Shown here: positions 6,001-9,000 of the stretch, one piece after another
Layout of the letters: each line of letters opens with the position of its first letter
How positions within the stretch are numbered: the first letter of the stretch is position 1
Virus record (IMG/VR): IMGVR_UViG_2537562194_000032
DNA length: 27,745 nucleotides
Reading direction: 5' to 3' (one strand)
From: a virus
Lineage: Duplodnaviria; Heunggongvirae; Uroviricota; Caudoviricetes
Made by a program: the position numbers

Positions 6001-9000
6001 TCAAATCGCAGTGGAATGATGAGACTTTTGATTGAGCTCACAGAGTGATTTGACATCCTTCACGCCTGAAGAATGTGGAGGATGTCAAAAGCACGTTGGC
6101 ATCATCATGCCACGTAAAGAGGATTAGTTATGCTTCAAAAGCTAGACGTCGCAGACAGCGTGCGTCGCGAGCTGTCTCCCCGTACCGCGCGTAAACACAA
6201 AGCTGAGTTCGGCCAGTTCATGACGCCTTCTGGCGTGGCCCGTTTTATGGCCTCCTTGTTTCCACCGAGCACAATGAAAACTTGCCGTCTACTGGACGCA
6301 GGCGCTGGTGTAGGCGCACTGTCTTGCGCCTTCCTCGACCGTTGGCTGGTTGGCGAGTTTGGCTTTGAGTCTGTCGAGGCAACAGCCTACGAAATCGACA
6401 AAAAGCTGTGTGGTCACCTTGCGAAGCACTTAACCGGGTACAGGAGAGTGACGCCCCGCATCATCGAAGGGGATTATATTGAGCTGGCAACCGCCGAAGG
6501 TCTACAGGATCGAGGTTATACCCATGCAATACTTAATCCGCCTTACAAGAAGATCAATAGCCAGTCAGCCCACCGGCAGGCTCTTCGCACTGTCGGTATC
6601 GAGACGGTAAATCTGTATTCCGCCTTTGTTGCACTGGCTGTAGGTGAGGTTGCACCTGGCGGGCAGATAGTGGCCATAATCCCACGTAGTTTCTGCAACG
6701 GACCGTATTACCGTCCGTTCCGTAATTTCATACTTGAGCGGGCAGCAATCCGCCATATTCATTTGTTCGAATCACGTAGCAAAGCTTTCAGGGATGACGA
6801 TGTGTTGCAGGAAAATATTATCATCCGCCTGGAGCGTGGAGGCCGTCAGGAGGCTGTTACAGTCACAACTTCGACCGATGATAGCTTTTTTGACCTGGTC
6901 ACCTACGAACACCCATTTGACCAGATTGTGTACCCGGACGATTCGGAGCGGTTTATTCATGTGCCGACCACGCTCGAGAAAAGCGCCATTGAGTTATCAT
7001 CTGCCGTACAATGTTCGCTGGCTGATATTGGCGTGAAGGTATCGACCGGACCGATAGTTGATTTCCGACTGAAAGCTCATTTGCGCAGCATGCCAGAAGA
7101 AGGAACTGTTCCCCTGATCTACCCGAGCCATTTGAGTATGAGTAGCACTGTCTGGCCTGTGGAAGGTTTGAAGAAACCCAACGCAATCATGCGCAACGAC
7201 GAGACAGAAAAGTGGCTTTACCCGAACGGTTTTTATTGTGTGGTGCGTCGTTTCTCGTCGAAGGAGGAAAAGCGCCGAGTGGTAGCAAGCGTCGTTGATC
7301 CTGCTACCTTCAGTGAGTATTCAGTGTTGGGATTTGAAAATCACATGAACGTGTTTCATGAGAACAAACATGGGTTACCCGAGGCGCTGGCCCGTGGCTT
7401 GGCCGTGTTCCTGAACACTACCGCAGTGGATAAGTATTTCCGTCGCTTCAACGGGCATACACAGGTCAATGCAACCGACCTCAAGATGATTAAGTACCCA
7501 AGCCGTGACACTCTGATAGAGCTTGGCAAGTGGGCTATGCAACAAGAAACTCTCACGCAAGAACATATTGACGCTAAGCTAGGAGCTCTGACTGCATGAA
7601 CAACCAAAATGATTATATTGAGGCCGCTCAGCAAATTATAGCATCCTTAGGCCTGCCCAGAGCGCAGCAGAATGAGCGTTCTGCTTTGTGTTTGCTGGCA
7701 CTCCTGAACCTCACACCGGGAAAAGCATGGGCCGACGCGGAAAATCCGCTTGTGGGCATTACACCAATCATGAATTGGGTTCGGGAGCACTACGGCAAGG
7801 TCTACGCACCCAATACTCGTGAGACATTCCGCCGCCAGTCTATGCATCAGTTCTGCGCTGCTGGAGTAGCCCTCTACAATCCGGACAAGCCCGATCGCCC
7901 AGTGAACAGCCCGAAGGCTGTTTATCAGATCGAACCTGCTGCTCTGTCCATGCTACGCACTTTCGGCAGCCCGGCATGGCACGATAGCCTTGCAACCTAT
8001 TTAGCCGAGCGTGAAACGCTGGTTACCCGCTATGCTAAGGAGCGCGAACAGAATCGTATCCCTGTTGAAATTGCTGCGGGCCAGCAAATAACCCTCAGTC
8101 CCGGCGAGCACAGCGAACTTATCCGTGCCATAATAGAGGACTTCGCCCCACGTTTTGCTCCGGGTAGCGTGCTGGTCTATGCTGGCGACACTGGCGAAAA
8201 GTGGGGCTACTTCGACGCTCCACTGCTGGCCGGGCTAGGTGTTGATGTGGATTCACACGGTAAAATGCCAGATGTGGTGCTACATTTTACTGCGAAAAAC
8301 TGGCTGCTACTGGTTGAGTCTGTCACCAGTCATGGACCGGTTGATGGGAAGCGGCATGCTGAGCTTGCCAGACTGTTTGCCGGATCAACAGCCGGACTTG
8401 TCTATGTGACCGCTTTTCCAAATCGCTCCATCATGGGGCGATATCTTGGTGAAATCGCATGGGAAACAGAGGTATGGGTGGCTGATGCACCTTCTCATCT
8501 TATTCACTTCAACGGAGTGCGATTTCTTGGCCCCTACTCTACTGAATGAGAACAGGACCAGATAAATAGCCCGGCCCATGCGCCGGGTTTTTCTTTGCAT
8601 ATCCCCTCCTGTTATCTGCCCCCTTAAAAAATAAATCACTTTAAAAATCAGTTAAGTAATAATTTCTCGCTATTAAAAAGCACCAACGGTATTTACATAA
8701 AAATCACCGCAAGTTATATTTATTTCAAGCCAGAAACATCGCGCCCTTACACAGGGCTACATAAATCAGTCGTACGGCGCGACTTAACCCGCCGCAAAAT
8801 GCTCTTTAACAATCTGGAGCTTTACAGCGTCAATGACCTGTTTAGACCCCTACACGTAAACGTGCTGTATCATCGGGTGCGATCCGGTCGATGAGAGAGT
8901 ATCCCCGCGCGAGAGCGAGAACGGCGTGAGAACGGGCAACACTGGCAGGAAGTTGGCGCTGACCAATACAGGGAATGTTTTGGGGTGCAGGCGGCACCGC

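Follow-up and report, generated by a model that had tools for sequence, protein, structure and literature searches.

The closest described system to the locus considered here is EcoGIII, the restriction-modification (R-M) system of the O104:H4 Stx2 phage (strain C227-11), which was reportedly described by Fang and colleagues in 2012 (Nat Biotechnol 30:1232). PstI of Providencia stuartii and BsuBI of Bacillus subtilis recognise the same CTGCAG site according to published annotations, with proteins of similar size, an endonuclease (R) of the same two-domain family and a gamma-type m6A methyltransferase (M). They are distant homologues rather than near-identical orthologues, likened to the present pair by family. 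The PstI genes are divergently arranged, whereas M and R here are tandem and overlapping, and the present copy, unlike PstI and BsuBI, is phage-borne and lies inside an immunity region. Among proteins of known structure, SdaI, with the 8-bp recognition site CCTGCAGG, is the one most closely related to R. In Type II R-M systems under C-protein control, a small controller helix-turn-helix (HTH) gene and its C-box lie beside R. By position, the comparable locus is lambda rexA-rexB, which also lies after cI and before OL/pL, and is likewise expressed in the lysogen and excludes other phages; Rex is an abortive-infection system consisting of a sensor and an ion channel.

The DNA analysed is a stretch of 27,745 nucleotides (hereafter the window), which its sequence assigns to the Stx2 prophage of E. 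coli O111:H- 95NR1/95JB1: across the full 27.7 kb a single base separates the window from 95NR1, and the R-M region (6040-8600) is 100% identical to both strains. The M/R pair within it is EcoGIII, a PstI isoschizomer of Eru1/Oslovirus-type Shiga-toxin phages. Compared with the O104:H4 Stx2 phage P13374, the R-M region is 99.8% identical in DNA over 3.7 kb with shared synteny, M is identical at 487 of 489 residues (99.6%; the two conservative changes are V61L and A286T) and R is identical at 317 of 317. P13374 has the pair in the same position after cI, with the same hairpins and terminator, and strain C227-11 belongs to the same O104:H4 outbreak lineage as that phage. The target CTGCAG is also shared, as given by the methylomes of 95JB1 and 95NR1, although the O111:H- enzymes bear the names M.Eco95JB1III and M.Eco95NR1III and have been assigned to the Stx2 prophage Phi10 (PMC6602927). 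Among 5,426 complete E. coli genomes the system was found in 139, and 98 phage records carry it as well. EcoGIII of this locus has already been described, and its rediscovery here is not new.

The gene order is cro (minus strand), OR, then cI, M and R (plus strand), a terminator, and a promoter-like site with OR3-like operator copies, such that the M/R pair follows cI on the same strand and precedes OL/pL. The cro gene (5023-5262, minus strand; Pfam Cro, E 5e-34) is annotated in RefSeq as a shorter 5023-5226. The OR region (5253-5312) includes the divergent pR and pRM, and its operators OR1 (5253-5268), OR2 (5275-5291) and OR3 (5295-5312) exactly match sequences that were DNase-footprinted with the identical repressor of the O104:H4 (BAA2326) phage. 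The cI repressor (5322-6035, plus strand; 237 aa, HTH_3 and Peptidase_S24) is followed directly by the M gene (6130-7599, plus strand; 489 aa), identified by ORF call and profile matches, and by the R gene (7596-8549, plus strand; 317 aa), the start ATG of which overlaps the M stop as ATGA (7596-7599). The Shine-Dalgarno sequence of M, AGAGGA (6118-6123, plus strand), lies 6 nt 5' of its start codon, and an AGGAG lies 9 nt upstream of the R start, within M. The ORFs, protein motifs, ATGA overlap, hairpins and terminator listed in an earlier note on this DNA were all recovered at the same positions on recomputation. In contrast to C-protein-controlled systems, no small HTH ORF for a C-protein was found at the cI-M junction, at the M-R junction or 3' of R; ORFs of at least 40 aa in the cI-M-R interval, other than the genes themselves, are overlapping frames inside genes only, and the only HTH gene upstream of M/R is cI.

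The placement of M and R, flanked by cI and by the leftward early promoter, agrees with the rexAB-like slot proposed in the earlier note, and the pair was likened in position to lambda rexAB in print in 2018 (PMC5977221). The two loci differ in that they have no sequence or mechanistic relation, the present pair combining restriction with self-protection by methylation. Searches of Pfam, NCBIfam and PADLOC found no Rex families in M or R; every family returned for them was one of methyltransferases or restriction endonucleases. The slot after cI varies in its cargo across this phage lineage. It carries other cargo in related prophages, and in phage PhiR12_3, a deletion derivative, R has been cut down to its C-terminal ~100 codons. 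In phages of different immunity type, the block from 5624, in the cI C-terminal domain, through the R-M pair to 8568 is 95.5% identical, and homology with these phages stops at the terminator (8568-8597).

M, which corresponds to M.EcoGIII, is a gamma-class N6-adenine DNA methyltransferase with the target CTGC(m6A)G. Its motifs GQFMTP (aa 28), LLDAGAGVGAL (aa 54) and NPPY (aa 136), of 489 aa, follow the order X, I, IV and are succeeded by a C-terminal target-recognition region, which indicates the gamma arrangement. Matches to the Eco57I methylase domain (Pfam, E 3e-9) and to PADLOC MTase_II (positions 1-489 of 494, E 2e-248) support the same class, as read earlier from the motifs.

The second protein had been proposed from context to be an endonuclease of the PstI/BsuBI type, and this assignment is borne out by Pfam, PADLOC and the SdaI structure. 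BsuBI_PstI_RE_N (PF17728, HTH) matches the R N-terminus (E 1.2e-54, profile 3-139 of 140) and BsuBI_PstI_RE (PF06616, catalytic) matches the C-terminus (E 4.6e-61, profile 1-153 of 154), both far exceeding gathering scores, so that the suggested profile search of the two proteins against Pfam returned methyltransferase and BsuBI/PstI nuclease domains. PADLOC REase_II matches R over its full length (E 1.6e-168), and the SdaI structure (PDB 2ixs) matches residues 8-315 (E 1.2e-77), with the PD...E catalytic core aligned. Loss of nuclease similarity or a disrupted active site would have counted against the assignment; instead, Y195, G197, D198, K202, P225, D226, E241, G247 and R253, which are nearly invariant among 87 BsuBI/PstI-family representatives clustered at 50% identity, are all kept in R. 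A separate homologue search with R returned near-identical E. coli copies only, which offer no diversity for such a check. An active-site defect was considered from the ESVT segment of R, in which a threonine takes the place of the lysine in the SdaI segment EAVK, but was rejected because T244 is the family consensus, threonine occupying that column in 52 of the 87 members. R is confirmed as a BsuBI/PstI-family Type II endonuclease, CTGCAG cleavage itself being taken from the literature.

Published data bear directly on activity in the lysogen. SMRT methylomes record m6A at 2390 of 2390 CTGCAG motifs in 95JB1 and 2434 of 2434 in 95NR1 (PMC6602927), which provides the methylated motif that the earlier note had suggested looking for and agrees with its prediction that the pair is expressed in the lysogen. 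The same system in the O145 strain RM13514 methylated 98.8% of motifs, compared with 0% in a strain without it, and a statement in the same paper describes the R enzyme of C227-11 as biochemically active (PMC3893438). The predicted role as a prophage-borne defence also accords with published experiments: an O104:H4 study, as cited in PMC6602927, found that EcoGIII protects against and restricts other lambda-like phages, and EcoGIII in recipients lowers conjugative transfer of the plasmid pESBL (PMC4288162).

A further suggestion, to compare CTGCAG counts between prophage and host, gave no clear signal of avoidance. The window contains 2 sites against 6.4-9.3 expected (P about 0.05 to 0.005), and the whole of P13374 contains 12 against 14.8 expected by base composition and 22.9 by a Markov model, with zero sites in its first 20.9 kb. 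The published host count of 2,434 motifs appears to be per strand, corresponding to a host density of ~0.22 sites/kb, and the window is therefore not clearly depleted. Overall avoidance was set aside, leaving a weak regional pattern only.

Type II R-M systems can serve as addiction modules. The main selected role of EcoGIII could be prophage addiction through post-segregational killing, epigenetic control of the host, or both, rather than defence; this general ability is in keeping with such a role, as are the persistence of the R-M pair beside the cI C-terminal domain in two immunity types (95.5% identity) and the finding of the O104:H4 study, as cited in PMC6602927, that EcoGIII alters the expression of ~1,900 genes and influences growth. 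We regard this reading as unlikely, if a serious contender, given the experimental restriction of lambda-like phages (as cited in PMC6602927) and of plasmid transfer (PMC4288162) and the presence of other cargo in the same slot, a pattern that fits a defence or 'moron' hotspot. Defence, addiction and epigenetic roles are not mutually exclusive.

The preferred reading, in which EcoGIII is expressed in the lysogen and restricts incoming DNA, is held as a whole with high confidence. The protein identities, the family, the catalytic core, full CTGCAG methylation and restriction activity are established here or in the literature. M methylates the adenine of CTGCAG on both strands, and R, whose N-terminal domain is a winged helix and whose C-terminal domain is of PD-(D/E)XK type, would cleave unmethylated CTGCAG. 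A lysogen expresses both, keeps its entire chromosome protected and restricts unmethylated lambdoid phage or conjugative plasmid DNA. The most likely route of expression is that the cI transcript from pRM reads through a hairpin lacking a U-tract into M, with R translated via ATGA coupling to M and transcription ending at 8568-8597. The M-first order and the coupling would hold R at or below the level of M.

Several observations are consistent with a pRM origin of the M-R transcript. Scans of the plus strand from the cI stop to the M start found no terminator-like site, in agreement with the earlier reading of this interval, and no sigma-70-like promoter at the scan threshold, though the interval may hold a weak promoter below it. 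RNA-seq of a phiPA8 lysogen gave, in three replicates, RPKM values of 97/142/209 for cI, 49/59/108 for M and 73/75/92 for R, placing M and R at ~0.4-0.75 of cI, with many other prophage genes at similar values, probably reflecting spontaneous induction. These data fit co-transcription without singling it out as proof would, since tens to hundreds of RPKM is the range of most prophage genes. With no promoter or terminator found between the genes, co-transcription of cI, M and R from pRM is likely on indirect evidence.

Expression of M and R from a promoter of their own, independent of pRM and CI, with the hairpin after cI marking the end of the cI transcript, is considered improbable. A very stable 15-bp hairpin does lie 14 nt 3' of the cI stop, a prophage with different cargo has an unrelated hairpin at this position, and the left arm of the hairpin contains a perfect TTGACA (6051-6056). 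Yet the hairpin has no U-tract, no acceptable -10 is present 16-18 nt 3' of the TTGACA, the promoter scan is empty over 5322-6793 of the plus strand, and M follows cI across the three RNA-seq replicates while cro stays flat. The TTGACA was rejected as the main route of expression, with no usable -10 and an empty scan. It is highly improbable that the pair is a decayed remnant with an active methyltransferase and an inactive endonuclease, a state suggested by the C-terminal ~100 codons of R that PhiR12_3 keeps, since both ORFs are full length here, R is 100% identical to that of P13374, from a lineage in which the enzyme is reported active (as stated in PMC3893438), and all nearly invariant family residues are present.

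The hairpin after cI (6049-6089, plus strand; arms 6049-6063 and 6075-6089) has 15-nt arms that are 93% complementary with 11 nt spacing, the lone mismatch becoming G-U in RNA, and no U-tract follows its stem. The 94-nt cI-M intergenic RNA is predicted to fold at -33.7 kcal/mol (z = -3.96), with 0 of 200 shuffles as stable. The stem is conserved among relatives while the loop differs, and the hairpin is kept in relatives in which the R-M pair has been deleted or swapped for other cargo, indicating that it belongs to the cI 3' flank and not to the R-M cassette. The small hairpin just 5' of the M ribosome-binding site (6097-6112, plus strand; 6-bp stem, 4-nt loop) occurs only where the R-M pair occurs, and in the predicted fold it leaves the Shine-Dalgarno sequence of M unsequestered. 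In the minimum-free-energy fold the cI stop region also pairs with this Shine-Dalgarno sequence over a long range, but this pairing was dropped, being built largely of A-U and G-U pairs and missing from the centroid of the shorter fold.

The earlier proposal that these hairpins set the relative timing of methylase and endonuclease expression is not supported: with both of them 5' of M, and with translation of R coupled to that of M, they have no means of setting one gene apart from the other, and the larger one outlives loss of the R-M pair. The larger hairpin would act as a partial attenuator or mRNA 3' stabiliser, and many of the transcripts could end or be processed there. A seemingly undescribed role as a general attenuator or mRNA-end element is possible, in which it would fix how much cargo is expressed relative to cI, and it may also mark a recombination boundary of the defence-cargo slot.

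At the other end of the unit, the intrinsic terminator (8568-8597, plus strand), placed at 8571-8593 in the earlier note, consists of an 8-bp G+C-rich stem (8568-8589) followed by TTTTTCTTT. Beyond it lies the leftward early control region (8601-8720, plus strand), with a promoter-like TTTACA-17-TATATT (8692-8720, plus strand) identified by promoter scan and candidate OL operators that repeat the ATCACCnnnnGTTATAT pattern of OR3 exactly at 8703-8719 and with 2 mismatches at 8601-8617. It has been stated in print that an OL operator is not readily identifiable in this phage type. The two sites repeat a footprinted OR3 pattern and the copy at 8703-8719 shares bases with the -10 of the leftward promoter-like element, which suggests that this phage type may have an OL operator. 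On pattern matching, this seemingly undescribed operator may lie at 8703-8719, the match at 8601-8617 being weaker. Taken jointly, the cI-3' stem-loop as a general regulatory element and the OL operator at these sites form a tentative proposal, somewhat more probably wrong than right.

The biology of EcoGIII has been on record since 2012, and a 2019 publication gave the methylome of this same strain. The present analysis adds the demonstration of the endonuclease family, the abandonment of hairpin-based timing, the variable cargo slot and the candidate OL operator. EcoGIII is carried on Stx2 phages of several outbreak lineages (O104:H4, O103:H25, O111:H-, O145 and some O157:H7); it methylates all host CTGCAG sites, restricts incoming phages and plasmids, and reportedly shifts the expression of many host genes.

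The restriction-modification (RM) pair downstream of the cI repressor gene is the EcoGIII system, the CTGCAG-specific system of E. coli O104:H4 Stx2 phages (Fang et al. 2012). It is already known: the system has been named and experimentally characterised, its placement relative to cI is in print and the methylome of this strain has been published. Strains 95NR1 and 95JB1 of E. coli O111:H- carry the RM region (6040-8600) at 100% identity, and the whole window differs from 95NR1 solely by one A in an A-run at 12246, inside the first IS1203/IS629 copy. Over the 3.7 kb surrounding the pair, Stx2 phage P13374 from the 2011 O104:H4 outbreak shares 99.8% identity with the window, and its endonuclease (R) and methyltransferase (M) match at 317/317 and 487/489 residues, respectively; TL-2011c, PA2, PA8, VT2phi_272 and Ss-VASD are similarly close over this length, as are dozens of further Stx phages. 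The overall reading of the pair in the earlier note was essentially right.

The assignment of R to the PstI/BsuBI type, previously drawn from context only, is established by full-length matches to the two BsuBI/PstI endonuclease domains of Pfam (E = 1.2e-54 and 4.6e-61), by the PADLOC REase_II profile, which covers the protein end to end (E = 1.6e-168), by the match to SdaI endonuclease (PDB 2ixs; E = 1.2e-77, residues 8-315), its only solved relative, and by an active-site alignment. In this alignment of 87 representatives, drawn from a protein search at the 50%-identity cluster level, Y195, G197, D198, K202, P225, D226, E241, G247 and R253 are nearly invariant, and all are kept in R. SdaI has a lysine at the position of the threonine in the ESVT of R, but an active-site defect was ruled out, as threonine is the family consensus. 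M carries GQFMTP at residue 28, LLDAGAGVGAL at residue 54 and NPPY at residue 136 in the gamma order (X, I, IV, with the target-recognition region C-terminal), and matches both the Eco57I methylase domain and, over its full length, PADLOC MTase_II (E = 2e-248). Nuclease similarity, an undisrupted active site and non-degenerate methyltransferase motifs, on which the earlier note had made its reading depend, were therefore all found. Among the 50%-identity representatives, those nearest to R are M-R fusions about 840 aa long (P0121, P0124, P0125 and others; PADLOC profile PDLC03359), which fits the tandem, overlapping M-R gene order of the window and suggests that this arrangement may readily interconvert with single-chain enzymes.

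Activity of the system is documented in several studies. SMRT sequencing of 95JB1 and 95NR1 (PMC6602927) found m6A at 2390/2390 and 2434/2434 CTGCAG motifs, respectively; the enzymes were named M.Eco95JB1III and M.Eco95NR1III and assigned, with the cognate endonuclease, to Stx2 prophage Phi10. The portion of PMC6602927 dealing with earlier O104:H4 work states that EcoGIII both methylates and cuts CTGCAG, guards against other lambda-like phages and alters the expression of about 1,900 genes. An O145 Stx2a prophage carries the same system; 98.8% of the motifs are methylated, versus 0% in a strain without it, and the R enzyme of C227-11 is stated to be biochemically active (PMC3893438). EcoGIII in recipient cells reduces conjugative transfer of plasmid pESBL (PMC4288162), and a bsuBI-type system occurs in the PST2 group of O157:H7 Stx2a phages (PMC4587872). 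The likeness to the lambda rexAB position had also been drawn in print: rexA-rexB lies left of cI in lambda, and the O104:H4 phage has a BsuBI-type RM system in that place (PMC5977221).

The ORF list, sequence and scans bear out the layout proposed for the locus. The cro gene (5023-5262, minus strand) is followed on the plus strand by cI (5322-6035; 237 aa, HTH_3 and Peptidase_S24), a 94-nt spacer, M (6130-7599; 489 aa) and R (7596-8549; 317 aa), whose ATG overlaps the M stop as ATGA. The spacer holds a large inverted repeat with 15-nt arms (6049-6063 and 6075-6089) that are 93% complementary, the single mismatch being a G-U pair in RNA, and a small hairpin on the plus strand (6097-6112). A plus-strand terminator (8568-8597; stem 8568-8589, then TTTTTCTTT) closes the unit, and the promoter scan gave a promoter-like site at 8692-8720.

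In the simplest model, transcription would start at pRM and give a single transcript that covers cI, M and R and ends at the terminator (8568-8597). A plus-strand scan from the cI stop to the M start found neither a sigma-70-like promoter nor a terminator (a hairpin with a U-tract); the earlier note had likewise seen no terminator there. M has a Shine-Dalgarno sequence rated good (AGAGGA, 6 nt 5' of its start), and translation of R is most likely coupled to that of M, since R begins within the stop codon of M and AGGAG lies 9 nt upstream. Published RNA-seq of the lysogen MG1655::phiPA8, with genes assigned from their coordinates and sizes, gives RPKM values over three replicates of 97/142/209 for cI, 49/59/108 for M, 73/75/92 for R and 71/67/73 for cro. 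Levels of M rise with those of cI and are about half as high, consistent with read-through and some loss at the hairpin, although these data are not decisive, since similar RPKM values are seen for many other prophage genes. Co-transcription of M and R with cI from pRM is considered likely. The full chromosomal CTGCAG methylation in the lysogen demonstrates expression of the methyltransferase, whichever promoter is used.

The proposal that the two hairpins set the timing of M relative to R does not fit the locus, because both lie 5' of M, and with R translationally coupled to it any hairpin effect would reach both genes together. The 94-nt spacer folds at -33.7 kcal/mol (z = -3.96), and 0/200 shuffles were as stable. 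Phage PhiR12_3 has lost M and the first two thirds of R, and its homology to the window extends through the large hairpin and breaks directly 3' of it. Strain STEC1585 carries an unrelated 245-aa ORF in the slot, but its cI is still followed by a decayed version of the large hairpin. The stem is kept while the loop varies (GCCTGAAGAAT in the window versus GTCCTTTGGGGC in PhiR12_3 and STEC1585), and RNA folding gives a perfect 19-bp stem in PhiR12_3. Strain UCPROB-001, with a membrane protein, an SDH-family protease and HicAB in the slot, has an unrelated hairpin at an equal distance from the cI stop. Persistence of the large hairpin in relatives without the RM pair places it in the 3' flank of cI, where it may act as a partial attenuator or a stabiliser of the mRNA end. 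From this comparison, the RM cassette includes the small hairpin (6097-6112) along with the ribosome-binding site, and any function of either hairpin is putative. The conserved stem-loop after cI is a minor residual lead.

CTGCAG sites were counted, as the earlier note had proposed. The window contains two sites (2227 and 25760, the latter inside the tRNA-Arg gene adjoining the integrase) versus 6.4-9.3 expected from composition, and the first 20.9 kb of P13374 (int to helicase) contains none, a weak regional depletion in the early arm of the phage (P about 0.01-0.05). Overall avoidance is not clear, with 12 sites in the 60.9 kb of P13374 versus 14.8 expected from base composition, and no conclusion was drawn from the regional pattern.

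The stretch after the RM pair has been described as about 1 kb of non-coding DNA (PMC5977221). It includes an Rfam match to isrK (9062-9137, 61 bits), with its own promoter-like site (9027-9055) and terminator (stem 9117-9132, then a T run). A match to C4 antisense RNA (9162-9249, 77 bits) overlaps the start of a Rha-family ORF (9166/9178-9948), and the region 9027-9249 resembles a P1 c4/ant-type or Gifsy-1 isrK-type module. Matches to sRNA-Xcc1 (10083-10166 and 20998-21087; 80 and 65 bits) each lie just 5' of an antirepressor-like gene, an ORF6N gene (10205-10879) and an AntA/AntB gene (21130-21768), respectively. Three IS1203/IS629 copies, each with an ALIL frameshift pseudoknot, lie at 11869-13177 (plus strand, splitting recT), 17650-18959 (minus strand, splitting an ead/Ea22-like gene) and 26476-27745 (plus strand). 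An MT-A70-family methyltransferase gene (22252-22878) probably corresponds to the MT-A70-type protein of phiPA8, which is annotated as a DNA adenine methyltransferase and is reported to act as an rRNA methyltransferase affecting virulence (PMC10810198).

No OL was readily identifiable according to PMC5977221. The pattern ATCACCnnnnGTTATAT has exactly two exact copies in the window, one inside the footprinted OR3 (5300-5316, minus strand) and one (8703-8719) that overlaps the -10 element of the promoter-like site (8692-8720); a further copy, with two mismatches, lies just past the RM terminator (8601-8617). From the 13 specified bases, a second exact copy is estimated to arise by chance about 1e-3 times per window. 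The 8601-8720 region is conserved in PhiR12_3, which has the same immunity, and is replaced in Lyz12581Vzw, a phage of the other immunity type. These patterns suggest 8703-8719 and 8601-8617 as candidate OL operators, a further minor residual lead.

The RM pair occupies the slot after cI in 139 of 5,426 complete E. coli genomes; the cI 3' end occurs in 147 genomes, a few with other cargo. In related E. coli prophages (L004, L005 and L006) this cargo comprises a 245-aa hypothetical protein, a small membrane protein with an SDH-family Clp-fold serine protease and HicAB, or a 56-aa ORF with HicAB. The slot is a variable cargo hotspot in this lineage, and possibly a defence hotspot. Lyz12581Vzw, an O145 phage of the second Stx2a group, shares with the window, at 95.5% identity, the block 5624-8568, which runs from mid-cI (the start of the C-terminal domain) to the terminator start and contains the C-terminal domain of cI together with the hairpin and both RM genes. 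Phages of this type differ in the N-terminal domain of cI, on the cro side and past the terminator. The RM pair has thus remained tied to the cI C-terminal domain, the two forming a fixed core around which immunity specificity was exchanged, as modules, on both sides.
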